From Clostridiaceae bacterium (GTDB lineage Bacteria; Bacillota; Clostridia; Acetivibrionales; DULL01): 64,000 nucleotides of DNA. The notes below the pieces were generated by a model that saw only the letters and a program-made list of their open reading frames with translations, was not told where the DNA came from and searched no databases. A program made the position numbers and the translations under genes. Positions 9,040-57,010 of this stretch are shown here, piece by piece. Location: the NCBI GenBank assembly GCA_012840395.1, contig DULL01000083.1, forward strand, positions 9,316-73,315, read 5' to 3'. Each line of letters begins with the position of its first letter. Positions within the stretch are counted from its first letter, which is position 1.

Positions 9040-10214
9040 ATATAGCAAAAATGATTTCTCCTGCAGTAAGAAATATCCCTCCATCTGGAATAAGAAAGTT
9101 TTTTGATCTTGTAAATGAAATGAAAGATGCAATATCTTTAAGCATTGGGGAACCAGACTTCATAACTCCCTGGAGCATAAGGGAAGCAGGGATATATTCT
9201 CTTGAGAAAGGTCGTACCCACTATTCTCCTAATGCAGGATTTAAAGAGCTTAGAGAAGAAATATCAAAATATGTGGAAAGAAAATATAATGTAAGCTACA
9301 GTCCAAAGGATCAGATAATTGTTACTGTAGGAGGAAGTGAAGCTATTGACATAGCTTTAAGATCCCTTGTAGGTGCCGGAGACGAAGTCATTATTCCGGA
9401 GCCCAGCTTTGTTGCATATAAGCCTTGTACCATGTTTACAGGAGCAACACCGGTAATTGTTAATCTTAGGATGGAAGATAATTTTAAACTGACTCCAGAG
9501 CTTCTGGAAAATGCCATTACGAGCAGAACTAAGGTACTTATATTACCATTTCCCAATAACCCTACAGGTGCAATAATGAACAGGGATGATCTTGCAAAAA
9601 TAGTGGAAGTGCTAAAAAACAGGGATATTATAGTACTTTCTGATGAAATATATTCTGAGTTGACATATGAAGGAAGGCATGTTTCAATTGCAAACTTTCC
9701 TGAGATGAAAGAGAAAACTCTCTTAATCAATGGTTTCTCAAAAGCTTTTGCCATGACTGGATGGAGGCTTGGATATGCCTGCGGTCATCCTGATCTTATA
9801 GCAGCCATGTATAAAGTACACCAGTATGCCATAATGTGCTCACCAACAACTGCCCAATATGCAGCCATAGAAGCTCTCCGGGGCAGTGATGGCGATGTGG
9901 ATTATATGGTAAGGGAATACAACAGAAGAAGACGGGTAATGGTAGACGGCTTTAGAAAAGCAGGTTTGGAGTGCTTTGAACCTTTGGGTGCTTTTTATGT
10001 ATTCCCATGTATTACTTCAACAGGTTTAACCTCCAATGAGTTTGCAGAAAGATTGCTGAAAGAGGAGAAAGTTGCAGTAATTCCGGGCAATGCTTTCGGA
10101 GATTCGGGAGAAGGGTATATAAGGGCTTGTTACGCATATTCCATAGAAAATATTTTTGAGGCTATGAAGAGAATACAGAATTTTGTAGGAAGGTTAAAAG
10201 AAGAACGTAAATAA
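9036..10214 (+). CDS. Class I/II PLP-dependent aminotransferase (AlaT/AspC/PatA-like)
   Basis: 392 aa with SGIRKFFDL, SIGEPDF, NPTG and the SKAFAMTGWRLGY lysine motif. The pairing with an Lrp-type regulator resembles B. subtilis alaR-alaT. Confidence 0.85.
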   Translation: MNIAKMISPAVRNIPPSGIRKFFDLVNEMKDAISLSIGEPDFITPWSIREAGIYSLEKGRTHYSPNAGFKELREEISKYVERKYNVSYSPKDQIIVTVGGSEAIDIALRSLVGAGDEVIIPEPSFVAYKPCTMFTGATPVIVNLRMEDNFKLTPELLENAITSRTKVLILPFPNNPTGAIMNRDDLAKIVEVLKNRDIIVLSDEIYSELTYEGRHVSIANFPEMKEKTLLINGFSKAFAMTGWRLGYACGHPDLIAAMYKVHQYAIMCSPTTAQYAAIEALRGSDGDVDYMVREYNRRRRVMVDGFRKAGLECFEPLGAFYVFPCITSTGLTSNEFAERLLKEEKVAVIPGNAFGDSGEGYIRACYAYSIENIFEAMKRIQNFVGRLKEERK

Positions 10215-39249: not shown

Positions 39250-41154
39250 ATGATTAAAGTAACACTAAAAGATGGGAGTATTAAAGAATATAGCAAAGGA
39301 ACAACTCTTTTAGAGGTAGCCCAAAGTATAAGCGCCGGCCTGGTTAGAATGGCTCTTGCCGGTGAGGTTGATGGTGAAGTGAAAGATTTAAAATACAGGC
39401 TTGAAAAGGATTGCACTATAAAATTCCTTACTTTCGATGATGAAGGTGGAAGAGATGCTTACAGGCATACTACTTCCCATATTATGGCCCAGGCAGTAAA
39501 AAGACTGTATCCTGATGCCAAACTTGCCATAGGTCCGGCAATTGAAAATGGTTTTTACTATGATTTCGATATGGAAAAGACTTTGTCAATTGATGACCTT
39601 GCAGAAATAGAAAAAGAAATGGAAAAAATAATAAAAGAAGATTATGAGATTGAAAGATTTACTTTGCCGAGAGACGAAGCTATTAAGTTCATGCAGGAAA
39701 GAGGAGAACCCTATAAAGAAGAATTGATTACCGAATTGCCTGAAGGAGAAGAAATTTCTTTCTACAGACAAGGTGATTTTATTGACTTATGCGCAGGACC
39801 TCATTTGACTTCCACCGGTCATGTAAAGGCTGTTAAACTGCTGTCTGTTGCAGGAGCCTATTGGCGTGGAAATGAGAAAAATAAAATGTTGCAGAGAATT
39901 TACGGTACATCTTTTCCCAAAAAGAGTCTATTGGATGAGTATGTATTCAGAATGGAAGAGGCAAAAAAGAGAGATCACAGAAAACTTGGAAAAGAGCTTG
40001 ACTTGTTCACTATAATGGAGGAAGGTCCTGGATTCCCATTCTTCCTGCCTAAAGGTATGATTATAAGGAATATTCTGGAGGATTATTGGCGCCAGGAGCA
40101 TAAAAAGAGAGGTTACCAGGAAATCAAAACTCCCATTATACTTAGCGAAGAATTATGGCATCGTTCCGGCCACTGGGACCATTATAAGGAAAACATGTAC
40201 TTTACCAAGATAGATGAGGGAGACTATGCAATTAAGCCAATGAACTGCCCTGGTGGAATACTTGTTTACAAGAGAAAGCTCCATTCCTACAGAGACCTGC
40301 CTCAAAGAATGGGAGAACTTGGCTTGGTTCACAGGCATGAACTTTCAGGTGCATTACATGGATTAATGCGTGTAAGATGCTTTACTCAGGATGATGCTCA
40401 TATATTTATGACACCTGAGCAGATAGAAGATGAGGTTGTAGGTGTAATCGAACTTATTGATGAGTTCTATAAGGTCTTTGGATTCAAATATCATATTGAG
40501 CTGTCAACAAGACCTGAAAATTCAATGGGTACCGAAGAGCAGTGGGAAGTTGCAACAAACGCCTTAAAAAATGCACTTGTTGCAAGAAACCTGGAATTCA
40601 AAATTAATGAGGGTGACGGAGCTTTCTACGGACCAAAGATTGATTTCCATCTTGAAGATTCAATTGGGCGTACCTGGCAGTGCGGCACAATACAGCTGGA
40701 TTTCCAGATGCCTGAACGCTTTGACCTGACCTATATAGGTGCTGATGGAGAAAAACACAGGCCTGTCATGATTCACAGGGTTGTTTTCGGAAGTATAGAA
40801 AGATTTATCGCCATATTGGTAGAACATTATGCAGGCGCTTTCCCTGCCTGGCTGGCTCCGGTGCAGGTAAAAATATTGCCTTTGGTTGACAAGCATCATG
40901 ACTATGCTTTTGAAGTAAAGAAAAAACTGGAGGATATGGATATAAGGGTTGAAATAGACCTGAGAAATGAGAAAATAGGCTATAAAATCAGGGAAGCACA
41001 GCTTGAAAAGGTGCCCTATATGTTAGTTATAGGAGACAAAGAAGTAGAAAACAGCCAGGTTGCAGTAAGATCAAGAGCTGAGGGAGATCTTGGCGCTATG
41101 GATGTAGAAAAGTTTATTGATAAAATTACCAAAGAAATAAAGGAAAAAAGATAA
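39250..41154 (+). CDS. thrS: Threonyl-tRNA synthetase
   Basis: 634 aa with a TGS domain (MIKVTLKDGSIKEY), an editing domain (HTTSHIMAQAV), a class II core and an anticodon-binding domain. It starts 3 nt after the FAH-family stop codon. Confidence 0.97.
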   Translation: MIKVTLKDGSIKEYSKGTTLLEVAQSISAGLVRMALAGEVDGEVKDLKYRLEKDCTIKFLTFDDEGGRDAYRHTTSHIMAQAVKRLYPDAKLAIGPAIENGFYYDFDMEKTLSIDDLAEIEKEMEKIIKEDYEIERFTLPRDEAIKFMQERGEPYKEELITELPEGEEISFYRQGDFIDLCAGPHLTSTGHVKAVKLLSVAGAYWRGNEKNKMLQRIYGTSFPKKSLLDEYVFRMEEAKKRDHRKLGKELDLFTIMEEGPGFPFFLPKGMIIRNILEDYWRQEHKKRGYQEIKTPIILSEELWHRSGHWDHYKENMYFTKIDEGDYAIKPMNCPGGILVYKRKLHSYRDLPQRMGELGLVHRHELSGALHGLMRVRCFTQDDAHIFMTPEQIEDEVVGVIELIDEFYKVFGFKYHIELSTRPENSMGTEEQWEVATNALKNALVARNLEFKINEGDGAFYGPKIDFHLEDSIGRTWQCGTIQLDFQMPERFDLTYIGADGEKHRPVMIHRVVFGSIERFIAILVEHYAGAFPAWLAPVQVKILPLVDKHHDYAFEVKKKLEDMDIRVEIDLRNEKIGYKIREAQLEKVPYMLVIGDKEVENSQVAVRSRAEGDLGAMDVEKFIDKITKEIKEKR

Positions 41155-41205
41155 TGGAGTCAAATGGGAGAAAGGTCAATAAACCAAAAAATTTTTATTG
41201 ACAAC

Positions 41206-41235
41206 TTGACATTTACTCGCATATTCTGATATTAT
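41206..41235 (+). promoter_or_regulatory. Sigma-A-type promoter of the infC operon
   Basis: TTGACA (41206-41211), 18-nt spacer, TATTAT (41230-41235). A second TTGACA lies at 41198-41203. Confidence 0.55.
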
Positions 41236-41385
41236 GTAATAGCTAAAACAAAGAAGAAGTCATCCACTTCTCACCCTATGGCAATTGCCTCCAGGGTTAA
41301 TATTGTAAGCATGAGTGTTATACTCGTATTTGCATTGGTGTATTTAAGAGTGGATTGATTTTCTTTCAATCCACTTTAGTTTTAT
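41236..41385 (+). promoter_or_regulatory. infC-rpmI-rplT leader with attenuator (L20-leader-like)
   Basis: Terminator AGTGGATTGA (41349-41358), loop TTTTCTT, TCAATCCACT (41366-41375), then a T-rich tract. An upstream copy of ATCCACT (41262-41268) could pair with the left arm as an alternative structure. Confidence 0.6.
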
Positions 41386-41450
41386 ATTAAGCATTTTATT
41401 GAGATGCATGAAGCAAAAGCTTCTTGCCAAAATATATTTGGAGGTGTTTT

Positions 41451-41966
41451 ATTATCAGTAAAAACGAATTAATGATTAATGAGGAAATCAGGGATAAGGA
41501 AGTAAGATTAATTGACACTGACGGTACCATGTTAGGTATAATGTCTGCAAAGGAAGCTCAAAAGCTGGCAAATTCCAAAAACCTGGATCTTGTAAAAATT
41601 GCCCCTAATGCAACGCCACCTGTTTGTAAGATTATGGACTATGGCAAATACATGTTTGAGCTGTCTAAGAAAGAAAAGGAAGCCAGAAAGAATCAAAAGG
41701 TTATTTCAGTTAAGGAAGTATGGCTCAAACCTACAATTGAAGAACATGATTTTCAATTTAAGGCAAGAAATGCCTGCAAATTCCTTAAAGATGGTGACAA
41801 GGTAAAGGTAGGTGTAAGATTTAGGGGACGGGAAATGCAATACACCTCATTAGGGCAGGAAGTACTCGATAAATTTGCGGAATACACCAAAGAAGTGGGT
41901 GTTGTTGAAAAGAAACCCAGACTTGAAGGAAGAAATATGATTATGATATTGAATCCGAAGAATTAA
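41451..41966 (+). CDS. infC: Translation initiation factor IF-3, with a non-canonical start codon
   Basis: The IF-3 sequence ([23 protein letters not shown]...) begins right after GGAGGTG (41440-41446). The only plausible starts are ATT 41451 or ATC 41454. The TTG 41424 given by the ORF track lies upstream of the RBS. Confidence 0.9.
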
Positions 41967-42041
41967 CAAGTCTAAAGTGCATTGCTTTTGACAACGGTTT
42001 TATGACAACGAATATTTAACTTTCAGGAAGGAAGGATGTTT

Positions 42042-42239
42042 ATGCCTAAGATTAAGACACACAGTTCTTCAAAAAAGAGGTTTAAGCTTACGGGAACAGG
42101 CAAGGTAAAAAGGGCAAAGGCTTATAAGAGCCATATACTTACAAAGAAAACTTCTAAAAGAAAGAGAAACTTGAGGAAAGCAACAGTTGCATCGGAGGCT
42201 AATGCTGCCACCGTACGAAAGATGATTCCATACAAGTAA
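42042..42239 (+). CDS. rpmI: 50S ribosomal protein L35
   Basis: [24 protein letters not shown]... Confidence 0.95.
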
Positions 42240-42256
42240 GAAGGAGGAGAATAGCT

Positions 42257-42607
42257 ATGGCAAGAGTAAAAGGTGGGGTTAGAACCCGTGCAAGACATAA
42301 AAAGATATTGAAGCTTGCAAAAGGATATTTCGGAGGCAAGAGCACCAAGTTCAGAGTTGCCAACCAGGCTGTTATGAAATCCCTTTCCTATGCATACAGG
42401 GATAGAAGAGCAAAGAAAAGAGATTTCAGAAAATTATGGATTACAAGAATTAATGCCGCAGCAAGAATGAATGGCATGTCATATAGCAGATTCATGAATG
42501 CCTTGAAAAAATCAGGTATTAATTTGAACAGAAAAGTACTGGCCGACATGGCTGTTAATGATGCTCAGGCTTTTGCTCAGTTAGTAGGCCAAATAAAAAA
42601 TGTTTAA
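42257..42607 (+). CDS. rplT: 50S ribosomal protein L20
   Basis: [26 protein letters not shown]... Confidence 0.97.
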
Positions 42608-44828: not shown

Positions 44829-45893
44829 ATGTATACGTATACGGATTTTTTAAACCTAATAAAATATGCCAGAGAAGCAAATGCTACAAATATACATCTT
44901 GTAGCAGGAGCTGTTCCGGCTATACGCGTTGAAGGAAGGCTTTTATATACTCCTTTTGAGACTGTACTTCCAAAGGATACCGAGATGTTTGCAAATGAGA
45001 TACTTAACGAAGAACAAAAAAGCATACTGAATAAAAACTTTTATATCAGTGTCCCAATTTCACCGAAAAATATCGGAAGACTAAGAGTAAATATATTCAA
45101 ACAAAGGAATTCCTATTCTATTAATATTAAATTACTGGATAAGGTTTTAAAAAATCCTGAAGAACTGGGCATACCTCAATCAGTAATAAACTTATGCAAT
45201 GAGAAAAGCGGGCTTATTCTTGTCTGTGGAAACACCGACAGCGGAAGATCAACAACTATGGCATCCTTGATTAAAAAGATTAGTTCAACCAGAGAATGCC
45301 ATATTATTACTATTGAAGATCCAATTGAGTACTTATTTAAACATGATAAGGCAATTGTAAATCAAAAAGAAGTAGGAATAGACGTGAATAGTTTTGAAGA
45401 AGGCATTTATTCAGCAATAACTCAGGATGCAGATGTAATAATGGTAAGCTCAGCTATAGATCCAGCCACATTTTCTGCAGTGCTTACTGCTGCAGAGGAC
45501 GGGCATCTTGTCATTACATCTCTTCATACAGATGATTCAATTTCAACCATAGAATATATAATCGGTATGTATCCTGCAGAAAAAAGCAATTATATAAAAA
45601 TACAGCTTAGCCATTTACTATTGGCAATAGTATCTCAATGTCTTATACCTGGTGTTGATAATGTGGGAAATAAGCTTGCTGTTGAAGTGATGATTGCAAA
45701 CCAGGCAATGCAAAACCTCATTCTGGAAAATAAAATTCACCAGATACCTACGTTAATAAGGGCAAGCAAATCCATTGGAATGATAACTATGGAGGATTCA
45801 ATAAATGAACTGTATACATCAGGCTTGATATCTAAGGAAAGCGCTTTGAGCTATCTGTCTAATAGAAAATATTCTTTAGGAAGATCAAACTGA
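44829..45893 (+). CDS. PilT-like type IV pilus retraction ATPase homolog with degenerate catalytic motifs
   Basis: Collinear with PilT (NIHLVAGAVPAIRVEG, RLRVNIFKQ, TIEDPIEY, GHLVITSLHT). Walker A reads GNTDSGRST (Arg AGA at 45246-45248 where Lys is expected). Walker B reads DVIMVSSAID (Ser-Ser at 45447-45452 where PilT has Gly-Glu). Confidence 0.8.
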   Translation: MYTYTDFLNLIKYAREANATNIHLVAGAVPAIRVEGRLLYTPFETVLPKDTEMFANEILNEEQKSILNKNFYISVPISPKNIGRLRVNIFKQRNSYSINIKLLDKVLKNPEELGIPQSVINLCNEKSGLILVCGNTDSGRSTTMASLIKKISSTRECHIITIEDPIEYLFKHDKAIVNQKEVGIDVNSFEEGIYSAITQDADVIMVSSAIDPATFSAVLTAAEDGHLVITSLHTDDSISTIEYIIGMYPAEKSNYIKIQLSHLLLAIVSQCLIPGVDNVGNKLAVEVMIANQAMQNLILENKIHQIPTLIRASKSIGMITMEDSINELYTSGLISKESALSYLSNRKYSLGRSN

Positions 45894-45931: not shown

Positions 45932-47635
45932 TTGTTTAAAAGGACAAGCAGCAGTATAAAAAATTTAATGGAATTATACAGATATATATCGATTTTCCTA
46001 ACATTGTTCATATATGTAGTTCATGGTATATTCCAGAACTACAATATATCTGTAATGCTTATTCTGGTTTTTTGTGTAATTATATATGCTTTCCTTTTTG
46101 GATATCTTTATAATATAAGCTTCGGTGACAAACAACGGATGGTTATTCTGCTTTTACTGGATATTGCAGGCATATCCTTCCTGATACTGCTGACAGGGGG
46201 GCTGGATAGTTCATTTATATGGTGTTTCCTTAATCCGTTGCTTGTTATATCCTATTATGCACCTCTGCGACCAAAGGTTTTATCCCTTGCAGCCAGCATA
46301 ATGTTACTATGCATTATCGGCTATATTGTTGAAGGAAAGCCGGGCATTAGGCTTTATTTATTATCCAGGTCCAATATTATTTTGAGTTTTACTTTGTTAT
46401 TGATTCTTGTTAATATACTTTTCTATTATAGCAGCCTTTTAGTAAAGAAGCAGAAGGAGCTAAGCCTTGCAAATGAAACTCTTGAAAGCTACAACAGGAG
46501 AATTAAGGGGATGACACAGGATATTTTGCATTTGTATGAGGCTGTTCAGACCATTTCAGGTTTATCGGTCCAGCAGGATGTGGCTTCTATTTTACTTGAG
46601 TTTGCAGGGAAGGTTTTCCCTGAAGCTAATGCTTTTTATTATCTTGATGACAATGGAAATACCGACAAACTTATGACCTTAAATCCGATAGATGATAATA
46701 TTTGGGATAATCTGGTGGATGATGTTAAGAGTTTGAGTGTATATAATAATACTGGTGCTGTTTCTGGTATCAGCAGGAAATTAGTAATAAATTTAGTTGA
46801 CCAAAATTTTGTTGCAGTAATAACAAGAATAACGGAAATAAAAAACTACGGAGTAATCGGCCTCCTGGTTCCTAGAGAAAAATACGGAGAGAATAAGGAT
46901 GAATATGAATCAAACCTGCTGCTCATATCACAACTGGCAACAACATTTTTTGAAAAAATAGAAGACGAAGCAGTGGGCTGTGAACTTGCTGTAGCTGACG
47001 AACAGAACAGAATAGCTGAAGATATTCATGACAGCGTAGTACAAAGGCTTTTTGCCGCTTCCTGCTTTATATATGACACACTGAAGAAATGGAATAATTT
47101 AACTGATGAACAGAAAAAGGAACAACTAAATCTTATAATGGAAACTATACGGAGTTCACTGGAGGACCTCCGTTCCACAATATATAATTTAAGCAGCAAA
47201 AAGCAGAATATCGTGCTTTTCAGGGAGAGTTTAGCTTCCTATCTTGACCAGATGGAACGGCTCAGCGGTATAAACATACACCTGGATGCCCGGGGAGACC
47301 TGGACAGCCTTTCTCTCAATGCAAGAAAGGCTATTTACAGGATAATAACTGAGTGTACGGGGAATGCCGTAAAACATGCAAAGTGCAAGAATATATGGGT
47401 TCATTTGCTGATGGATGAGAAAAATACAAAATTAACCATAAAGGATGATGGAATTGGTTTTGATTTGAGAAATAATGGAAATCGCAGTAATAACGGCCTT
47501 GGATTATACAACATAAAAAGCCTTGTAAGAATTTACAAGGGCAATTTGGAAGTTTTATCGGGAAAAGGCTCTGGCTCAACGTTTAACATAGAATTTAATA
47601 ATGACAATATTCTGAAGAAACCGGAGGCATTATAA
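45932..47635 (+). CDS. Sensor histidine kinase, NarL/DegS class (HisKA_3), with a polytopic N-terminal sensor
   Basis: About 5-6 N-terminal TM helices, a central sensor-like region, an H-box (EQNRIAEDIHDSVVQRLF) and an HATPase_c domain (NAVKHA...DDGIGF...NGLGLYNI...GSGSTF). The start is uncertain (TTG 45932 or ATG 45968). Confidence 0.85.
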   Translation: MFKRTSSSIKNLMELYRYISIFLTLFIYVVHGIFQNYNISVMLILVFCVIIYAFLFGYLYNISFGDKQRMVILLLLDIAGISFLILLTGGLDSSFIWCFLNPLLVISYYAPLRPKVLSLAASIMLLCIIGYIVEGKPGIRLYLLSRSNIILSFTLLLILVNILFYYSSLLVKKQKELSLANETLESYNRRIKGMTQDILHLYEAVQTISGLSVQQDVASILLEFAGKVFPEANAFYYLDDNGNTDKLMTLNPIDDNIWDNLVDDVKSLSVYNNTGAVSGISRKLVINLVDQNFVAVITRITEIKNYGVIGLLVPREKYGENKDEYESNLLLISQLATTFFEKIEDEAVGCELAVADEQNRIAEDIHDSVVQRLFAASCFIYDTLKKWNNLTDEQKKEQLNLIMETIRSSLEDLRSTIYNLSSKKQNIVLFRESLASYLDQMERLSGINIHLDARGDLDSLSLNARKAIYRIITECTGNAVKHAKCKNIWVHLLMDEKNTKLTIKDDGIGFDLRNNGNRSNNGLGLYNIKSLVRIYKGNLEVLSGKGSGSTFNIEFNNDNILKKPEAL

Positions 47636-47733
47636 CGAGGATGTAAGAAATTTTTCAACAATCGAAATTTTTCTTATGAATCTGGACGTTATAAGAAATA
47701 AGAAGTGTGTGGTCTGAAGGACAAAGGGTGCAA

Positions 47734-48909
47734 ATGATAATGGGCAAAAGAGAATATGAAGCGCTAATTATACTGGCTGTTATACTGTTATCGGCTATAC
47801 TTGGTATTAGGATTTTGCCGTCTTTTATAGGAACAACCGCATATCAGAATATCTTCAAGCCCTTATTCTGGTTTGCCCTTTCAGTTTATATATGGAAACA
47901 GCCTAGAGTAAGATTTAAAGGAAAGTTGAAACTCCATAAGTATATACTTATCTGGTCTGCAATATGTGGAATTGTATACATGGCTATTTTTTTTGCAGGA
48001 GGATTTATGGATGGAATAGGGGCAAGCCCATATTCAAGGAGCATAACCGGTATGCTTGTGAATGTTTTAAGTTTCGGAAGCGTAATAGTTATGATGGAAT
48101 GGGTAAGGAATTACATCATAAACAAAGTCAAGAAAAAATATCTAATTCAATTCAGTATTTTGGTGGTAATAATATTTACATTTTACAGGCTGAATCTGAG
48201 GATTTTAATGAGCGTGGAAAACTGGCAGCAGGTTATACGGTATGTAGGTGAATATGCGGGACCGGAAATAGCGTTAAATATTTTGATGGCATACATGGTA
48301 TATATTGGGGGAGAACGGCCGGCAATAATATATATGGCGCTTACAAACCTCCCCATTTGGATATCGCCTTTGCTTCCAAACCTCAGGTGGATTACCAAGG
48401 CTTTCATTGGAATTATGTCACCCGTAATATTTTTTATCATGCTGCGCCAGATTTATAAAAAGCAGGCAAAAGAGGTTAAAATAAGAGAGCAAAAAAGTGA
48501 AAAACCAACTTCCTGGATAGCTGTAAGTGTATTTTCAATTGCCCTTATATGGTTTGCTGTGGGAGTCTTTCCTATATACCCCGTAGTAATTCTTACAGGT
48601 AGCATGCAGCCTGCAATTGATCCAGGGGATATTGTTCTTTTGCAGAGGACCGATGGGCAAAACCTCAAAGTAGGAGAGATTATACAATACTGGACCGGTG
48701 AAATATTTATAGTTCACAGGATTATTTCAATAGACCAGGCCACCGGAAGGTACCAGACCAAAGGAGACAGTAACAGTGCACCAGACTCTGTGCTGGTTGG
48801 ACCCGAACAGATAAAAGGCAAGTTGATATCAGTAATACCTAAAGTTGGAAAACTAAGCATATGGCTTAGGAGAGACTATGAGTATCCGGAGGAACAAGTA
48901 GAGTTTTGA
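47734..48909 (+). CDS. Fusion protein: polytopic membrane domain of about 260 aa (unknown family) plus a SipW/ER-type signal peptidase I
   Basis: The C-terminal catalytic domain has LTGSMQPAIDPGDIV (Ser codon at 48601-48603), IVHRII (His) and KGDSNSAPD. The N-terminal region has about 6 TM helices not found in ordinary SipW. The track ORF starts at GTG 47707. Confidence 0.8.
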   Translation: MIMGKREYEALIILAVILLSAILGIRILPSFIGTTAYQNIFKPLFWFALSVYIWKQPRVRFKGKLKLHKYILIWSAICGIVYMAIFFAGGFMDGIGASPYSRSITGMLVNVLSFGSVIVMMEWVRNYIINKVKKKYLIQFSILVVIIFTFYRLNLRILMSVENWQQVIRYVGEYAGPEIALNILMAYMVYIGGERPAIIYMALTNLPIWISPLLPNLRWITKAFIGIMSPVIFFIMLRQIYKKQAKEVKIREQKSEKPTSWIAVSVFSIALIWFAVGVFPIYPVVILTGSMQPAIDPGDIVLLQRTDGQNLKVGEIIQYWTGEIFIVHRIISIDQATGRYQTKGDSNSAPDSVLVGPEQIKGKLISVIPKVGKLSIWLRRDYEYPEEQVEF

Positions 48910-48959: not shown

Positions 48960-50030
48960 ATGAATTTAAGCCTGACATTAAATAAAAAGAGAATAGTTAT
49001 TGCGGTTGAAATACTACTGGTACTTTTCTTCTGTATTAATACCTTATTGGAGATATTAGTTCCGAAATATACGGATGCAGAGAGAGTAAAGTTTGCATAT
49101 ACCAGCAAGGCCAATATAGACTACAGGGTATACCTGAGGCCGAATATCATATACCGTGAGAGTTTTCTGGAAAAGGGAAGATATTATATATTAAAATATA
49201 TCGATCATGTAAACTTGAATATGAAATACGATTTTATCTCATCGGATGAAGCTGACTTAACTGCAGTTTACAGTGTTACTGCATATCTTCAGGGACTTCA
49301 TGGAGAAGAAAATGAGGTGCTTTGGAGCAGGGAATATATTTTGATCCCAGAAAAAACTATACATAGGAATTCTTCCGATTTATCAATTGAACTGAGCGAA
49401 AATGTTTCCCTCAGTGAATTTCTGCAGGTCAGGGAATCTTTCTACCTTGAGTCGGAAGTAAATTCTCCTGCAGTACTTAATGTGGTTTTTTCAGTACATA
49501 CAAAAGCAGATTCCAAGGAAGGGACCCTGGAAGACAATTTAAAAACAAATTTAATTATACCGATAGGAAACAACGTGTTTAAAATAGAAGGTACCCCGGA
49601 AGCAAGGGGTGAAAACAGAATTCCAGAAACTATAAGAAACCGTATTCCTGTTAATTACTTGAAAGTTGCAATATTCCTTGTAATTTCACTGCTGCTGGTT
49701 GTACTGGTGATTCTTACCATACGTTACGTCAAAACCGCAGAGCCTCCGGATCCATTTAATAAGGCCATTGCAGATATATTCAAGGAATACTCTGAGAGAC
49801 TTGCAGGTATGACCCATAGTATATCCTACCATTTTTCTGATGTGATAACAGTTAATTCAATTGAAGATATGATTAAAATAGCAGATGAAATAGGACAGCC
49901 TGTCTTCTACTACAAGGTTGACAACAAGGTTGAAAGGAAAATAGAGTTTTTTGTATTTGACAGCGGCAGAGTCTATTATATGGCAATATTTGGTGAGATT
50001 AAACCGGAAAGTGAAGAAAGTTCCATATAA
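48960..50030 (+). CDS. Bitopic membrane protein (DUF5305-like; assignment tentative)
   Basis: 356 aa: TM1 (IVIAVEILLVLFFCINTLLEIL), an extracytoplasmic beta-rich domain of about 195 aa, TM2 (VAIFLVISLLLVVLVILTI) and a cytoplasmic tail of about 100 aa. Lies adjacent to the signal peptidase gene. Confidence 0.55.
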   Translation: MNLSLTLNKKRIVIAVEILLVLFFCINTLLEILVPKYTDAERVKFAYTSKANIDYRVYLRPNIIYRESFLEKGRYYILKYIDHVNLNMKYDFISSDEADLTAVYSVTAYLQGLHGEENEVLWSREYILIPEKTIHRNSSDLSIELSENVSLSEFLQVRESFYLESEVNSPAVLNVVFSVHTKADSKEGTLEDNLKTNLIIPIGNNVFKIEGTPEARGENRIPETIRNRIPVNYLKVAIFLVISLLLVVLVILTIRYVKTAEPPDPFNKAIADIFKEYSERLAGMTHSISYHFSDVITVNSIEDMIKIADEIGQPVFYYKVDNKVERKIEFFVFDSGRVYYMAIFGEIKPESEESSI

Positions 50031-50996: not shown

Positions 50997-51686
50997 ATGT
51001 TGGGTAGTTCTAAACGCCTTTTATCAATAACAGTTATAGCACTGGTACTAATTGGACTAAGCTATACTTTATCCTTTCAGGAGGGATTTGTTGAAGCAGC
51101 GCTTACCAATGCCACCCTGATTGAATTAGTACCTGATGAATGTAAAGTAATAAATACCAGCAAGAATTTGGAAGCCGGCGTGTCTTTTATAAAGGATGAA
51201 TTTGGTAACATTGTGGATAAAACATATATCATGCTTTCAACCAAAAACGTTTATGCAGGCGCCAGTGCTACCTTTTGCATAACTGCACGGAACATTAGCG
51301 ATATTCCCTTATCTGTTGATCAGTTTACTCTCCATGTTGATAGCAGGAAGGACTCCATATCTGATCTTATGTATTTTTCCGGAAAAGTAAAAATATACAG
51401 GAATGATGGAGTATATTACGATGAACTTGGCACCTTCAGCAACATCAACCTGGCTGCACTTGCAGACAACTTGACATCATTGACGAAATATAGGAAAATT
51501 GATTCCGGAGAAAAACTGGTACTTGAATTACAGCAAAAGTTTTCTGTGGATTCTGAAAAATTTGTTGGGAAAGTTGGCTTGTCATACAGACTGGAACCGG
51601 TTTTTGTCCAGTATTTTCCCAAAGAAGAAGAATTAGAAGAAGAATTATTGGTCGGGAACAATAGTAGGGATGAAAATGTTTCTTAA
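50997..51686 (+). CDS. TasA/CalY-like secreted protein, paralog 2
   Basis: Signal peptide ..LVLIGLSYTLSFQEGF, then NATLIEL, VYAGASATFCITARNISDIPLSV and LSYRLEPVFVQY, with an acidic C-terminal tail (EEELEEELL). Confidence 0.65.
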   Translation: MLGSSKRLLSITVIALVLIGLSYTLSFQEGFVEAALTNATLIELVPDECKVINTSKNLEAGVSFIKDEFGNIVDKTYIMLSTKNVYAGASATFCITARNISDIPLSVDQFTLHVDSRKDSISDLMYFSGKVKIYRNDGVYYDELGTFSNINLAALADNLTSLTKYRKIDSGEKLVLELQQKFSVDSEKFVGKVGLSYRLEPVFVQYFPKEEELEEELLVGNNSRDENVS

Positions 51687-52197: not shown

Positions 52198-52806
52198 TTG
52201 ATTCACTTTATTGAGGTGATTTATATAAAAAAACTGGTTTTAATAGTATTTATTATAATAATATCTATACTTTGTACAACAGTAAGCTTCGGATTATGGA
52301 GGTATAATTCCGAGGTCAGGTTTACAATAACCATTAAACAGCCTGAACAAGACTACGGTTGCTGTATTTGTGGTAAATATAGCACAATACGGGAAGGTAT
52401 AGATCTTTTAAGAGATGTACAATATCCGAAAATATATAACAAGATGGAGCAGTATAAAAATATGTTGTATGCACGGATAGACGAGCTTAATAATCTTCCC
52501 TTTGGAGGCATCACATATGAAGAGCTGGATGCAGAAGTAAATAAATATAGAAATGTTGATATAGAAGGATTTGGTAATTGTATTGAGACATATGGAAATT
52601 GTATAGTTACCCTGGGTGAATTTTATGAGAATTCAACACCAGAAGAAAAGAAGCAGGTCCCTAATTTCTGGACTGAGTCGTCTGGTCTTTGGATTTTGCA
52701 TTCTCAGCTTTGGACAAAACGCTCTGAGCTTTATATTGTAGTAAGTGAACTCTGGACCGCCGGACAAAGCAAAATAAACTGGGAGAATGAAGACGGCGAA
52801 GGGTAA
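52198..52806 (+). CDS. N-terminally anchored protein with a Cys cluster and C-terminal aromatic heptad repeats
   Basis: TM segment/signal LVLIVFIIIISILCTTVSFGLWRYNSE, a QDYGCCICGKY cluster, GFGNCIETYGNCIV, and five heptads (PNFWTES SGLWILH SQLWTKR SELYIVV SELWTAG). The start codon is uncertain (TTG 52198, or later after GAGGTG at 52213-52218). Confidence 0.55.
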   Translation: MIHFIEVIYIKKLVLIVFIIIISILCTTVSFGLWRYNSEVRFTITIKQPEQDYGCCICGKYSTIREGIDLLRDVQYPKIYNKMEQYKNMLYARIDELNNLPFGGITYEELDAEVNKYRNVDIEGFGNCIETYGNCIVTLGEFYENSTPEEKKQVPNFWTESSGLWILHSQLWTKRSELYIVVSELWTAGQSKINWENEDGEG

Positions 52807-52864: not shown

Positions 52865-53524
52865 TTATTCAGTCATATTCCCATTGCTATTTTTGCCTTT
52901 GTTTACATAAATTGCTGCCTGTAATCTGTTACTTAAATTAAGTTTTGCAAGAATGCTGCTAACATGTTTTTTTACAGTATTTTCGCTTATATAAAGTTTT
53001 TCTGCAATACTCTTGTTAGACATTCCTTTCCCAAGACAGTCTAGAATTTCAGCTTCTCTGGGAGTCAGCAATTCATCTTCACCTTCAGATTGTTGCACAG
53101 TCTGGCTCTGTACAGGAGTATTTATTCTTTCCAAAAAAACAGGGTCGAAATATTTTCTACCTCTAATAACAGACTTTACGGCATATACAATATCTTCAGT
53201 AAATGCATCTTTTAAAATATATCCGTCAATATTCAATTTCATAGCCCTGTCAAAATCCTCGGTAGATGAAGAAGATGAAAGTATAACATATTTGCAGTTA
53301 GGAAATTTTTCCTTTGCCATACGTATGAAATCGATTCCACTTTGATCTTTTAGCCTTATATCTACCAGAGCCAGATTATAGTCATTATTTGACATCAGTT
53401 CCAATGCTGACTTTACATCGTGAGCAAAATTAACATTATTTATATCTTGTTCAGAGATAAGTATATTCCTAATGCCGATGCAAACCAGGGGATGGTCGTC
53501 AACAATTAAAATATTCATATACAT
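52865..53524 (-). CDS. NarL/LuxR-family response regulator (REC domain plus LuxR HTH)
   Basis: MNILIVDDHPLV...LVDIRL (receiver domain) and LTPREAEILDCLGKGMSNKSIAEKLYISENTVKKHVSSILAKL. ATG 53524 lies 6 nt after AAGGAA. Confidence 0.9.
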   Translation of the reverse strand: MYMNILIVDDHPLVCIGIRNILISEQDINNVNFAHDVKSALELMSNNDYNLALVDIRLKDQSGIDFIRMAKEKFPNCKYVILSSSSSTEDFDRAMKLNIDGYILKDAFTEDIVYAVKSVIRGRKYFDPVFLERINTPVQSQTVQQSEGEDELLTPREAEILDCLGKGMSNKSIAEKLYISENTVKKHVSSILAKLNLSNRLQAAIYVNKGKNSNGNMTE

Positions 53525-53710
53525 CAGCTCTTCCTTAACTATACTGTATTTTAGTACAATAATATTTACCATAAAATATTTATGTATATTTATATAATAT
53601 TTTATATATTTTTTTGAATAAAATCTATGCTTTTTATAGTATAATTTTTGACAACTTATGAAAAAGAAAGTGAGCCAGAAGAAATACCTTTCTGGCTCAC
53701 TGCAGATTCG

Positions 53711-54358
53711 TTAATCAGGAAGCTGTTTCTTATAATATTGATTGGATATTTGATCCATTTTATCTACAATTCCCTGTTCATCAATTCTATTTGTATAGTA
53801 TTCCTCATAATCATTATATCCTCCCATATCCTGTGGAGAGTCGGAAGAACCATATTTTACTAAGTCAAAGAATTGATCCATACCTTCATGTTCGTCATCT
53901 TCCTGACTATTTAGATATTTTCTTCCCAGAGGCGCGTCCATAACCAATTCTTCATTTGGCCTGTCCATATTAGCTTTCATGGGAGTTTCATTGCCAGCTC
54001 TGTTTTTTTCACAGTATAAACATGTTGTGGCATGTGGCACAGCTTCAAGTCTTTCTTTTTCTATCTCCTTACCACACACTTCGCAATTTCCAAAGACACC
54101 TTGGTTGATTCTCTCCAATGCATCATTGGTTTCTCTTAATTGATGTTCCTGATGGGTTATCAGCGAATTATTAAATTCTGCCTGAAAAAGTTCCGAAGCT
54201 ATTTCTGCAGGGTGGTTATCATAGTTTGATAACTCCGCGGGAGAATATTTATCCTGGTTTGACATACCATGTTTTTTCATTTTTCTTAATGTTTCTTCAA
54301 AATTATTTTTTCTATTTACAAGTATTTCCTTAAATTTATTAAGCTCATTTATTTCCAT
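53711..54358 (-). CDS. YteA-like DksA/TraR C4 zinc-finger protein
   Basis: CEVCGKEIEKERLEAVPHATTCLYC zinc finger preceded by a coiled-coil. 215 aa, the YteA family length. Confidence 0.75.
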   Translation of the reverse strand: MEINELNKFKEILVNRKNNFEETLRKMKKHGMSNQDKYSPAELSNYDNHPAEIASELFQAEFNNSLITHQEHQLRETNDALERINQGVFGNCEVCGKEIEKERLEAVPHATTCLYCEKNRAGNETPMKANMDRPNEELVMDAPLGRKYLNSQEDDEHEGMDQFFDLVKYGSSDSPQDMGGYNDYEEYYTNRIDEQGIVDKMDQISNQYYKKQLPD

Positions 54359-54569
54359 TAAGTTTTCCTCCCTATAGAATATTGTAAAATAACAAATTGC
54401 ATATTATTGGCAAAGGTTTTTTGAACACCATTACATCCTGGATATAGTATGAGACTTATTTTTGAATCTATAGCTCCCTTAATTAAGCAATTAATTGAAT
54501 AGTTTTCACGAATAATATTCTTAATACTGTAGAAAATAATAAGGAAAATAAATATAAAGGAGGGATTAT

Positions 54570-54770
54570 ATGCCGCCTTTGACAACAAAGGAACTTCTTC
54601 TTATTCAGGACAATATTAAAATGACTCAAAACACTATAAGCTTTATGAACAGCTGCGCGCAAATAGCGACAGATCCGCAGGTTAAAAGCTTATGCCAGCA
54701 AATGGTAAGAGATCATCAAAATGATTTGCAGGTTTTAATGAAACATATTAAGTCAACAACAGTTCAATAG
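54570..54770 (+). CDS. Small spore-coat-associated protein (CotF-related)
   Basis: 66 aa (TTKELLLIQDNIKMTQNTISFMNSCAQIATDPQVKSLCQQMVRDHQNDLQVL). Paired with the following Coat F-like gene. Confidence 0.55.
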   Translation: MPPLTTKELLLIQDNIKMTQNTISFMNSCAQIATDPQVKSLCQQMVRDHQNDLQVLMKHIKSTTVQ

Positions 54771-54781
54771 GAGGTGGAACA

Positions 54782-55033
54782 ATGGCTAATATTACAGATA
54801 AAGATATTATGGAGGTGTTGCTTACTCAGCACAAATTAGGAGCTATTTCATTAACTAATCTGGTTCTTGAAAGCAGCTGTCAGAATGTAAGAACTGATGC
54901 AACAAATCTTCTCACAAAAACTTTCGAGCATCAGAAACAAATTTATGATATCATGTCCCAAAAAGGGTGGTATCAAACTATGACAGCAAGTCCGCAGGAA
55001 ATTAGTAATGTACAAACCAGTTTAAATATGTGA
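54782..55033 (+). CDS. Spore coat protein F (Coat_F domain)-like
   Basis: 83 aa (DIMEVLLTQHKLGAISLTNLVLESSCQNVRTDATNLLTKTFEHQKQIYDIMSQKGWY). Confidence 0.65.
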   Translation: MANITDKDIMEVLLTQHKLGAISLTNLVLESSCQNVRTDATNLLTKTFEHQKQIYDIMSQKGWYQTMTASPQEISNVQTSLNM

Positions 55034-55162
55034 TATTTAACAATTTTTTTTATAAAAACATAATGACAGGCAGTTTATCTAAGAACAAGGTGGCAGGTTA
55101 AAAGAAAAAGGCAGGATTTAATTCCCGCCTTTTCACTTATTTTTATTATTTATATAATACTA

Positions 55163-55342
55163 CTATTTGCTGTAATTGTTTCCAGTATATGCTTCAAACA
55201 CTTTCTTAACTATATTACCACCAATTTTACCTGCGTCTCTGGCAAGTAAGTCACCATTGTAACCTTGCTTTAAGTTAACTCCAACCTGGGAAGCTATTTC
55301 ATATTTCATGTTTTCAAACTGAGACTTGCTTTTCTTAGCCAT
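55163..55342 (-). CDS. Alpha/beta-type small acid-soluble spore protein (59 aa), below the ORF-track cutoff
   Basis: Hand translation: MAKKSKSQFENMKYEIASQVGVNLKQGYNGDLLARDAGKIGGNIVKKVFEAYTGNNYSK. It matches the SASP pattern (KYEIA..GV.L.......R..G..GG.....). GGAGGTG RBS precedes ATG 55342. Confidence 0.85.
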   Translation of the reverse strand: MAKKSKSQFENMKYEIASQVGVNLKQGYNGDLLARDAGKIGGNIVKKVFEAYTGNNYSK

Positions 55343-55617
55343 AATATCACCTCCTTACTAGATATTGTTTCAAAAAACTAACGATTTATAAGTAGAAAGA
55401 TTTGGATATTATTATTACTTTTTCTGTAGACGAATTTTTCAAAGTTCAATTACCTTCACTTCTTGTTTTAATAAGATTTTCAATATTATTATTCCTGTTA
55501 AGAGGTGAAAAAATTCAAAAAATAGATTTTCATAAATTTGTACAAATACTTTATTTTGCGTATGCTAAAGGTAATTTCCATAAAAAGATTAATATAACTT
55601 GGCGTGCTAGCTTATAA

Positions 55618-55683
55618 GTCATATGCGTTATTAGGGCAATAACATGGGTTTCTTTAAGTCCGTGTTAAGATAACGCATATGGC
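55618..55683 (+). other. Long imperfect hairpin about 130 nt upstream of the DD-carboxypeptidase gene
   Basis: CATATGCGTTAT (55620-55631) pairs with ATAACGCATATG (55670-55681), a perfect 12 bp that extends with T-G and G-C pairs. An inner stem is ACATGG/CCGTGT. Confidence 0.5.
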
Positions 55684-55813
55684 CTGCCATGGAATGAAAG
55701 GTTAACTTAGTTCTCAATAACATTTTATCGTTTCCTCGTACATATATTTATTTTATGAGACTGCTACACAAAAACAAGAATAAACAAACAAGCTTATTAA
55801 GAGAGGGATTACT

Positions 55814-57010
55814 TTGAGGAGAATAAAGTTTTCTTTTGCATTAATTTTAATTGTTGCAATGTTTTTTTCCTGGAACCCTGTAATAGCAGATGATATTTAC
55901 GAAGACCAGTTTTTTATAGAAACTTTCAGCAGCCCGGAGTATGTTAATCAAGTTCCTGTAATTAATGCCCAGGCGGCAGTTGTCATGGATATGGACTCAG
56001 GAAGAGTTTTGTTTGAGAAAAATGCTTATTCCAGGCGAGCTATGGCCAGTACAACTAAAATAATGACTGCCATTCTGGCAGTGGAAAACGGTAACTTAAA
56101 TGATGAGGTTACCATAAGTAAGAGGGCAGCAAGTATCCGGGGTTCTACCATTGGACTCCAAGAGGGGGATAAATTGACTTTGAAGGAACTGCTCTATGGA
56201 CTTATGCTGTCGTCAGGAAACGATGCCGCCATAGCAATTGCAGAGCACATAGGCTCATCAGTGGAAGAGTTTGCGAAAATGATGACAAAGAAGGCTTATC
56301 AAATCGGAGCAAGAAATACCTGTTTTATAAATCCTCATGGCCTTGATACTGACGGGCATTACACTACTGCTTATGATATGGCTCTAATTGCCAGGTATGC
56401 TTTAAATAATCCTATAATAAATGAAATAGTCAAAACTCAAAAAATACAATCATCCTTTGGAACGCTGTACAATACAAATGAGCTGTTAGGTGTTTATCCA
56501 GGTGCCGACGGAGTTAAGACAGGTTATACAGGAAAAGCGGGGAGATGCCTAGTTGCATCTGCAACGAGGAATGGCCACAGGTTGATTTCTGTAGTACTGG
56601 GAAGTCCAACCAGAGGAGCAAGAGCCCAGAGCAGCAAAGATATACTGGACTATGCTTTTAGTACATACAAATATTACACTATTCTGGAAGAAGGCACCTG
56701 TATAAAAAAGCTGCCTGTAAAAAGAGGCATTACAGAAATGGTTGAAGTAAAAACCATAGAGACTATTACTTTGCCTCTTAAGGAGGAAGAGTATAAATCA
56801 TTACAGAAAAAGATTTATATGCCTGATGAACTGGATGCTCCTGTAATTGCAGGCACTGATGCAGGATTCATACAGTTTGTACTGAATGGCGAGGTCATTG
56901 TCCAATCAAATCTAAAAATATGCCAGGATGTAAGACGTAAGGTATTTACAGATTATCTGGGGGATGTAATCAAAGAATGGTGCAGGATAATGAGGTGGAA
57001 AGCACAATAG
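55814..57010 (+). CDS. Serine-type D-alanyl-D-alanine carboxypeptidase (DacB/PBP5*-like)
   Basis: Signal peptide, SxxK (ASTTKIMTA), SxN (SSGNDAA) and KTG (VKTGYTG). Confidence 0.9.
   Translation: MRRIKFSFALILIVAMFFSWNPVIADDIYEDQFFIETFSSPEYVNQVPVINAQAAVVMDMDSGRVLFEKNAYSRRAMASTTKIMTAILAVENGNLNDEVTISKRAASIRGSTIGLQEGDKLTLKELLYGLMLSSGNDAAIAIAEHIGSSVEEFAKMMTKKAYQIGARNTCFINPHGLDTDGHYTTAYDMALIARYALNNPIINEIVKTQKIQSSFGTLYNTNELLGVYPGADGVKTGYTGKAGRCLVASATRNGHRLISVVLGSPTRGARAQSSKDILDYAFSTYKYYTILEEGTCIKKLPVKRGITEMVEVKTIETITLPLKEEEYKSLQKKIYMPDELDAPVIAGTDAGFIQFVLNGEVIVQSNLKICQDVRRKVFTDYLGDVIKEWCRIMRWKAQ

Follow-up and report, generated by a model that had tools for sequence, protein, structure and literature searches.

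A signal peptidase I fused to a predicted CAAX-protease-like membrane domain and encoded beside AbpX/TasA-type subunits in a clostridial genome

The gene considered here lies on contig DULL01000083.1 of a Clostridiaceae bacterium (assembly GCA_012840395.1), within a stretch of 64,000 nucleotides, positions 9,316 to 73,315 of the contig, that was analysed as a whole and is referred to below as the window. It encodes, in one chain, a polytopic membrane domain, here termed the N-domain, followed by a signal peptidase I, and it is accompanied by genes for a DUF5305 protein and for putative fibre subunits related to AbpX and TasA. Bacterial signal peptidases are usually seen as lone bitopic enzymes. 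A preliminary description of this DNA drew attention to the fusion, could not assign the membrane domain to any family, and suggested that it might couple cleavage of substrates to their export, polymerisation or anchoring. Our analysis demonstrates that the fusion gene is genuine, intact and widely conserved, and points to a fold for the N-domain which, in turn, suggests a possible function.

The fusion gene and its two halves

The open reading frame extends from a GTG codon but the true start is most likely the ATG at position 47740, yielding a product of 389 amino acids, because close homologues and the database entry P0001 (389 amino acids, 100% identity over 389 amino acids, annotated 'signal peptidase I [Clostridiaceae bacterium]') all begin with MGKREYEA. 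An AAAGGG run resembling a Shine-Dalgarno sequence is located 10-16 nucleotides 5' of this ATG. Residue numbers given here refer to the 389-amino acid form, and adding 11 converts them to the numbering of the preliminary description. The signal peptidase I and the polytopic domain preceding it do indeed occupy a single continuous frame, as had been described, and the arrangement is conserved in hundreds of proteins. The polytopic region is no accidental hydrophobic stretch, as this conservation and the confident model described below indicate.

The C-terminal third of the protein is, on the basis of its sequence, a signal peptidase I of the endoplasmic reticulum (ER)/archaeal type (S26B). With a cut-off set at 51.85, the NCBIfam model TIGR02228 (sigpep_I_arch) reaches 70.1 bits over residues 283-381 of the 400-amino acid reading frame, and the Pfam model PF10502 matches slightly under its cut-off. 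The putative catalytic residues are Ser288 (codon 48601-48603), located in a GSMxP motif, His326 (48715-48717), which takes the place of Lys as general base, and Asp343 (48766-48768) and Asp349 (48784-48786) within GDN...D, all as expected for the ER/archaeal type, and each of the four is 99% conserved among 234 homologues. The serine codon and the histidine had been correctly identified earlier, as Ser299 and His337. When the structural model of the full protein was compared using Foldseek, its S26 part matched the pilus-associated peptidase homologue SipA (4n31). Orthology with SipW was considered and rejected: the NCBIfam equivalog NF046067 yields 48.3 bits against a cut-off of 190, and the enzyme is SipW-like in type only. 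The peptidase carries its own predicted membrane anchor, helix 9, which is preceded by a Lys/Arg-rich cytoplasmic linker and is oriented from inside to outside, such that the catalytic domain would be placed outside the cell. The outer half of this helix, IWFAVGVFPIYP, is unusually conserved in the homologue alignment.

Structural models were generated with AlphaFold2 both for the full protein, with a predicted local distance difference test score (pLDDT) of 85, and for the N-domain alone, with a pLDDT of 89.6 and a predicted template modelling score (pTM) of 0.85. They reveal eight helices within residues 3-250 followed by the linker, the ninth helix and the S26 domain, so that the earlier estimate of about six transmembrane helices has to be raised, on predicted topology and structure, to eight in the N-domain with a ninth serving as the peptidase anchor. 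The positive-inside rule places the N-terminus, the C-terminal linker and the connections 2-3, 4-5 and 8-9 in the cytoplasm; loops 3-4 and 7-8 would face outwards, like the S26 domain. No stretch of the N-domain is better conserved than the 3-4 loop, in which residues G92, G94, S96, P97 and Y98 are conserved at 85-97% and which, together with the outer half of helix 9, constitutes the most conserved non-catalytic sequence of the protein. In the AlphaFold model this loop forms a small sheet of two strands with the 7-8 loop. Helix 4 carries three polar residues that are also highly conserved among the 234 sequences, Asn108 (98%), Glu120 (96%) and Arg123 (100%). The same alignment contains no conserved His or Cys within the N-domain; the column maxima are 38% for His, at a loop position, and 25% for Cys.

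Searches with the N-domain sequence against Pfam (one protein and 17 members), against NCBIfam at E values up to 10, and against the PDB with a sequence profile, were empty, and the CAAX-protease family PF02517 gave no match at E values up to 1 in the 17 members. The earlier statement that the helices could not be placed in any family therefore stands for sequence, but it no longer holds for the fold. Foldseek aligned the N-domain model with Rce1 (4cad_L, probability 0.99, template modelling (TM) scores 0.51/0.48 over the full length) as the sole good PDB entry, the remaining matches having TM scores mostly below 0.25 and at best 0.35-0.37. With the full-length model, SpdC from the SagB-SpdC complex (6u0o_A) came first (probability 1.00, TMt 0.56) and two Rce1 chains followed (probability 0.97-0.99); overall, the TM scores for Rce1 were 0.41-0.51. 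On these models, the N-domain probably adopts the type II CAAX-protease (CPBP) fold. Two viral proteins in the BFVD database, A0A8S5VSK5 from a siphovirus metagenome and A0A3G4ZUI2 from a giant virus, share the fold with TM scores of 0.43-0.51. No CPBP genes were found within the window.

Active CPBP enzymes carry three motifs, EExxxR, FxxxH and HxxxN/D (Pei & Grishin, Manolaridis et al., cited in PMC12260438). In the N-domain the presumed region of motif 1, on helix 4, retains a single glutamate (Glu120) instead of two, with the spacing ExxR, and no counterpart of motif 2 (FxxxH) or motif 3 (HxxxN/D) is conserved across the 234 homologues. As judged from the alignment, Glu-x-x-Arg is the only apparent remnant of the CPBP motifs that is left.

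Relatives, fusion variants and neighbouring genes

The 171 relatives obtained in a first search belong to Clostridia, Tissierellia, Thermincola, Dethiobacteria and other groups; nearly all measure 375-408 amino acids, and their alignments cover more than 85% of the query. When 1.84 billion cluster representatives were searched using a profile built on the N-terminal 238 residues, 1405 matched at E <= 1e-3, the best 150 of them being listed, and 991 matched at E <= 1e-10. More than 230 full-length homologues were obtained, with overall identities of 25-35%. Genomes were scanned with the full-length alignment as query, using one genome per species, and 430 species-level genomes were found to carry a relative; gene neighbourhoods were counted in the best 80 of these 430 loci, to which all counts out of 80 refer. 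These 80 loci belong to many genera, nearly all of them anaerobic Bacillota, and named members of the family also occur in Chloroflexota, Hadesarchaea and Geothermarchaeota. The preliminary description had allowed that the extension would be unremarkable if it proved to be a common, annotated feature of SipW homologues with a known role. It is common, as the 430 genomes and 1405 clusters demonstrate, and a single preprint sentence refers to it (see below), but the supposition of a known role was not borne out.

The same description had raised the possibility of an artefact, with two genes joined by a sequencing frameshift, to which a mis-called start might be added. A few database relatives consisting of the N-domain only, among them entry P0166, which ends in frameshift-like sequence, would fit such an explanation, but the frame is continuous, both halves occur in one chain in 245 of the 266 proteins collected, all of the 80 top loci encode full-length proteins, and the remaining N-domain-only entries are mostly either short fragments, or cut at or near helix 9, or frameshift-like at their ends. 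We consider the artefact excluded, its probability being negligible. Split versions were also sought, and no clean free-standing N-domain gene beside a short SipW was found among the relatives.

Two kinds of fusion variant extend the picture. In the hadesarchaeal protein P0254 (617 amino acids) the S26 domain is followed by a tenth helix, a basic linker, a signal-anchor and the sequence AYSHW↓SDDIYMSGTVKTG..., where the arrow, here and below, marks a predicted cut. This protein appears to combine the N-domain, the peptidase and a complete AbpX-like precursor, thereby carrying enzyme and substrate in one chain. The cut-site motif of its precursor part reads HW↓SDD. Proteins P0209 and P0252 consist of the N-domain, a Lys-rich cytoplasmic linker, a signal-anchor, a YW↓TETL donor-strand motif and immunoglobulin (Ig)-like or dockerin domains, and they lack S26. 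Their genes are located in two archaeal-type loci, L263 and L264, with AbpX-like genes and an HTH_45 regulator as neighbours, and no S26 domain was detected around them within 13 kb in any frame. The fusions seem to tie the N-domain to the signal-anchors of subunits as much as to the peptidase, and the earlier idea of a membrane module that couples cleavage to polymerisation or anchoring receives some support from such natural fusions to fibre-subunit precursors.

In the window, the peptidase gene is adjoined by the genes for a bitopic protein and for TasA-superfamily substrates, as had been stated (Table 1). The bitopic protein belongs to the DUF5305 family, members of which are regarded in the literature as accessories of dedicated signal peptidases in archaeal Tat (twin-arginine translocation) fimbriae, where TafG occurs with TafD, and at AbpX loci (bioRxiv 10.64898/2026.01.04.697558), and by analogy we propose that it is an accessory subunit of the signal peptidase. 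A DUF5305 gene is present in 73 of the 80 loci, usually directly downstream, and the protein encoded in the window has no sequence relative in the PDB.

Two of the four secreted proteins encoded next are AbpX-like, and homologues of AbpX type were found in 74 of the 80 loci. For the 190-amino acid subunit, cleavage is predicted at ...GYAA↓WSQTFTINSTVQTG (AA↓WSQTF, Trp27) and for the 173-amino acid subunit at ...ISYSS↓WSQSFSIFGSISTG (SS↓WSQSF, Trp43). The cut was placed before the tryptophan because residue 2 (Trp) of the AbpX structure 9sj2, which is the start of mature AbpX after an added Met, aligns with both Trp27 and Trp43. These neighbouring AbpX-type proteins are, by their sequences, probably dedicated substrates of the peptidase. 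The 229-amino acid protein lacks the W-S-Q-T/S-F motif, carries LSYTLSFQEGF, is encoded by a gene overlapping the next by 17 nucleotides, and may be a minor or accessory subunit. In the 202-amino acid protein the anchor is followed by 'FGLWRYNSEVRFTI' and there is a cysteine cluster, GCCICG. For these two proteins a part as tip, anchor or chaperone is conceivable, the 202-amino acid protein being a candidate for a tip or anchor subunit.

The preliminary description had also likened the arrangement to sortase or archaeosortase logic. This analogy fails both at the residue level, in that the N-domain has no conserved Cys or His, and for the substrates, whose signals are N-terminal, a C-terminal sorting signal being absent. 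An archaeosortase or exosortase was rejected on the same residues, and on the lack of any NCBIfam exosortase/archaeosortase match at E values up to 10, and an archaeosortase-like transpeptidase was rejected since the four neighbouring secreted proteins lack LPXTG and have no hydrophobic helix within their last 35 residues.

Table 1. Features of the locus in the window and, in the last two lines, N-domain-subunit fusions at loci L263 and L264
Feature	Coordinates	Strand	Basis or remark
PilT/PilU-type ATPase, orphan, upstream of the kinase gene	44829..45893	+	TIGR01420, 337 bits
HisKA_3 sensor kinase, polytopic, directly upstream of the fusion gene	45932..47635	+	Pfam/NCBIfam
Signal peptidase fusion, open reading frame with GTG start	47707..48909	+	400 amino acids
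N-domain, residues 1-250, eight predicted transmembrane helices, CAAX-protease (Rce1/SpdC)-like fold	47740..48489	+	AlphaFold, Foldseek
3-4 extracellular loop, DGxG(K/A)SPY, residues 91-98	48010..48033	+	alignment
Helix 4 polar residues Asn108, Glu120, Arg123	48061..48108	+	alignment
7-8 extracellular loop, SPxLPxLxW, residues 209-217	48364..48390	+	alignment, model
Helix 9, residues 256-273, predicted anchor of the peptidase, in to out	48505..48558	+	positive-inside prediction
S26 catalytic domain, extracellular by prediction, ER/archaeal Ser-His-Asp type, beta-rich	48559..48882	+	TIGR02228, Foldseek
DUF5305 protein, TafG-like	48960..50030	+	PF17231, E = 2e-24
AbpX-like (TasA-superfamily) subunit, 190 amino acids	50228..50800	+	phmmer against PDB, AbpX 9sj2, E = 8e-4
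Secreted protein, 229 amino acids, signal peptide, divergent	50997..51686	+	sequence; homologues in 13/80 loci
AbpX-like subunit, 173 amino acids	51670..52191	+	phmmer against PDB, AbpX 9sj2, E = 0.015
202-amino acid protein, signal-anchor and similar motif FGLW RYNSEVRFTI	52198..52806	+	sequence; homologues in 10/80 loci
NarL/LuxR-type response regulator	52865..53572	-	Pfam/NCBIfam; homologues in 57/80 loci
N-domain-subunit fusion P0252	L263 10001-11479		sequence
N-domain-subunit fusion P0209/P0267	L264 6336-7760		sequence

The subunit genes are bracketed by genes for a two-component system. Homologues of the sensor kinase occur in 59 of the 80 loci. Its N-terminal half (45932-46920, plus strand, about 330 amino acids, polytopic region and linker) represents a conserved family present in 51 of the 80 loci, with only a weak partial family match, to ActS/PrrB/RegB-type kinases, over residues 28-133. 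The PilT-like ATPase is linked to the cluster in the closest relatives only (13 of the 80 loci, including Thermincola) and no other type IV pilus genes lie beside it. Gene order in Thermincola is the same as in the window. There, the gene for a large serine recombinase (L003 3283-4929; domains Resolvase, Recombinase and Zn_ribbon_recom) separates the PilT-like gene from a truncated murA-like fragment, and its position at the edge of the module hints that the whole cluster may be on or beside a mobile or excisable element.

Further upstream (39250-42607) lie thrS-infC-rpmI-rplT and, downstream (53711-57010), genes for a DksA/TraR-type zinc-finger protein, a protein resembling alpha/beta-type small acid-soluble spore proteins (55163-55342, minus strand) and a D-alanyl-D-alanine carboxypeptidase. 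These sporulation and housekeeping genes identify the host as a spore-forming member of the Bacillota. A scan of the region for promoters and terminators gave counts at chance level that were uninformative on operon structure.

Possible roles of the N-domain

We lean, by a little better than even chances, towards the N-domain being a built-in, non-catalytic scaffold of the SpdC/SpbR kind, fused to a peptidase dedicated to AbpX/TasA-type subunits. The proposal is founded on the same layout of eight plus one helices, on the apparent E...R remnant, and on the conservation of those elements, the 3-4 loop and the partner helix, that form the interface of SagB with SpdC. In the crystal structure of that complex (PDB 6U0O), comprising 8+1 helices, the SagB helix lies on SpdC transmembrane helix 3 and the catalytic domain on the loop between helices 3 and 4, a cavity is open to the membrane with a groove leading to the active site, and the 'catalytic' residues of SpdC are dispensable. 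Since this same loop is touched by the partner enzyme, the 3-4 loop of the N-domain is a predicted contact site for the peptidase domain. SpbR provides a second precedent: its motifs are degenerate (HELYMR, FIYLD and QIVAI, with the E and R of motif 1 kept), it binds the signal peptidase SpsB through the transmembrane helix and extracellular domain of the latter and controls its activity as an inhibitor, and its function was unaffected by mutating the motif 1 remnant H118/E119/R123 (PMC12260438).

In such a scaffold helix 9 would pack on the eight-helix bundle, the outer loops 3-4 and 7-8 would fix the height and orientation of the S26 domain above the membrane, and the lateral cavity of the bundle would take up the signal-peptide helix of the incoming subunit. 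The cut would then fall exactly before the tryptophan that begins the donor strand, and the DUF5305 protein would act as a further, third, subunit. The non-catalytic status of the N-domain, the contacts between the two halves, the docking of the signal peptide and the direction of the effect on activity are what we infer here.

Several observations weigh against the scaffold proposal or the fold on which it builds. The link to CPBP proteins is drawn entirely from predicted structures and Foldseek, with E values of 0.01-0.1. Genuine PF02517 proteins were collected from viral contigs by their EExxFRG motif and verified with Pfam, and when the N-domain profile was aligned by hhalign, globally and locally, to the resulting CPBP profiles of 9 and 22 sequences, the probabilities were below 1%. 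The best, non-significant, local alignment lays Glu120 and Arg123 on EE..FR, and a synthetic CPBP consensus did not retrieve Rce1 from the PDB; given the non-significant profile-profile comparison, we keep the assignment at the level of the fold. The full-length model has a pTM of only 0.64 and low pLDDT values at residues 275-281, and the lack of a linked S26 gene around P0209 and P0252 implies that the module can work without a neighbouring peptidase. Moreover, the near-invariance of Asn108, Glu120 and Arg123 exceeds the needs of a purely structural role and, if the analogy with SpbR extended to inhibition, a constitutively fused inhibitor would make little sense.

A more ambitious extension of the scaffold idea, which we regard as possible but doubtful, is that the N-domain provides a platform for cleavage and insertion, holding an uncleaved signal-anchor at the base of the fibre while each cut frees a Trp-led donor strand for the next membrane-held precursor, so that cleavage would drive polymerisation at the base, in the manner of a polymerase, and keep the fibre attached to the membrane. 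The N-domain-subunit fusions P0209 and P0252, at AbpX-like loci without S26, and the triple fusion of the Hadesarchaea would be readily accommodated, and the C. perfringens system offers parallels in that SipW is needed for polymerisation of BsaA, besides export, and that BsaA polymers are freed by sodium dodecyl sulphate and not by lysozyme, indicating that they are anchored in the membrane and not in the wall. TasA-family fibres are, in addition, assembled through N-terminal donor-strand exchange. Nevertheless, the platform presupposes that the N-domain binds signal peptides, recombinant BsaA needs no accessory proteins to polymerise in E. coli, AbpX can likewise be assembled in vitro (bioRxiv 10.64898/2026.01.04.697558), short SipW enzymes are enough for both TasA and BsaA, and the fusions may serve only to secure co-expression. 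In its widest form the fused protein would be a fibre-building membrane machine, a sortase-like polymerase driven by a signal peptidase, growing fibres from the base and common to bacteria and archaea, with DUF5305 as third subunit and with the eukaryotic signal peptidase complex as its counterpart; this we hold to be speculative and rather unlikely.

The strong conservation of Glu120, Arg123 and Asn108 (96-100%) within the membrane, at an overall identity of 25-35%, could also reflect a surviving enzyme, a divergent glutamate-dependent CPBP protease that destroys released signal peptides or makes a second cut in the subunits. MroQ exemplifies an active bacterial CPBP protease (PMC12260438), and at the N-domain fusion loci without a nearby S26 gene the subunits would still need processing. 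This explanation is improbable, however, because nothing conserved corresponds to motifs 2 and 3, the source of the water-activating and oxyanion residues, the most frequent histidine occurring at 38% and in a loop, because motif 1 is reduced to a single glutamate with altered spacing, and because the characterised CPBP homologues with degenerate motifs, SpdC, SpbR and LnsB, are all non-catalytic. More improbable still is a function in signalling, whereby the N-domain would contact the sensor domain of the upstream HisKA_3 kinase and report the load of secretion or assembly to expression of the operon. The kinase gene ends 72-105 nucleotides upstream of the peptidase reading frame, kinase homologues and the kinase membrane domain are frequent (59 and 51 of the 80 loci), BsaS/BsaR are indispensable for expression of the sipW operon in C. 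perfringens, and SpdC reportedly binds WalK. Against this, at about a quarter of the loci a kinase is lacking within 6 kb, ordinary operon regulation fully explains the adjacency, and fusion of the N-domain to the peptidase or to subunit precursors is left unexplained.

If the scaffold proposal is correct, the pairing of a CAAX-like module with a signal peptidase, for which SpbR in 2025 provided the first example of a CAAX-like pseudo-protease shown to bind and control such an enzyme (PMC12260438), would here have become permanent through gene fusion, always serving TasA/AbpX-type biofilm fibres, and this in hundreds of anaerobic Bacillota as well as in Chloroflexota and several lineages of archaea. 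For the widespread orphan homologues of CAAX proteases, a scaffold role would then be supported by a second, independent case, and the combination of bundle, S26 domain and DUF5305 protein would point to a multi-subunit signal-peptidase complex in prokaryotes. For a domain without a Pfam entry there are now a predicted fold and elements that can be tested (Glu120, Arg123, Asn108 and the 3-4 loop) and, as a single chain with 1:1 stoichiometry and some close relatives in thermophile lineages such as Thermincola, the protein should be convenient for structural work on the recognition of signal peptides in the membrane.

Comparison with known systems

Of the bacterial operons that have been studied, sipW-bsaABCRSD of C. 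perfringens comes closest. Its expression is driven by a two-component system, and the TasA-like BsaA requires a short SipW both to be exported and to polymerise; in this organism, type IV pilus genes influence how the matrix proteins BsaA/BsaC are secreted and regulated. The locus in the window shares with it the two-component system and the link to type IV pilus genes and, with both SipW-BsaA and SipW-TasA of Bacillus, a dedicated ER-type signal peptidase encoded together with TasA-superfamily subunits. It differs in that SipW is short and bitopic and has neither a polytopic domain nor a DUF5305 partner, and the sipW-bsaA transcript is only 1.4 kb. Archaeal Tat-fimbriae, with TafD and TafG, similarly combine a dedicated signal peptidase I and a DUF5305 protein beside donor-strand fibre subunits, whereas TafD, with four helices, carries an additional extracellular domain at its C-terminus in place of the N-terminal eight-helix bundle, and the substrates use the Tat pathway. 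Archaeosortases and exosortases are also polytopic membrane enzymes devoted to the processing of surface proteins, and they are classified in the same Pfam clan as CPBP, but they need conserved Cys, Arg and His residues, and C-terminal sorting signals (PGF-CTERM, PEP-CTERM) on their substrates, neither of which is present here.

Among CAAX-protease-like proteins, Rce1 and other members of CPBP (PF02517) have in common with the N-domain, on its predicted structure, the eight-helix fold with Glu and Arg on helix 4, and differ in that the N-domain does not match the PF02517 hidden Markov model, lacks motifs 2 and 3, and has motif 1 apparently cut down to ExxR. The S. aureus pair SpbR-SpsB provides the functional parallel of a CAAX-like polytopic protein with degenerate motifs that works with a type I signal peptidase; these are separate proteins, however, and SpsB is a housekeeping enzyme of the Ser-Lys P-type, in contrast to the fused Ser-His type that appears reserved for fibre subunits; sequence similarity was not detected. 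SagB-SpdC remains the best structural match, with a non-catalytic CAAX-like bundle that scaffolds a bitopic extracellular hydrolase, although the partner there is a glucosaminidase, the substrate a lipid-linked glycan, and the pairing non-covalent.

The protein itself has a close counterpart in the 'ten-TM' signal peptidases (TM, transmembrane) at AbpX loci, to which one sentence is devoted in a preprint of January 2026 (bioRxiv 10.64898/2026.01.04.697558). These too are TIGR02228-type enzymes with many extra helices, encoded with AbpX-type subunits, DUF5305 proteins and, in bacteria, a histidine kinase, and Natronincola, which is named there, is also among the loci found here. The protein in the window has nine helices rather than ten, since a C-terminal anchor is absent. 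The helices were counted in the preprint and it contains no mention of Rce1 or CPBP. Thus, the class of peptidase has already been noted, whereas the fold, the decay of the motifs and the subunit-fusion variants are, within the literature that we searched, new.

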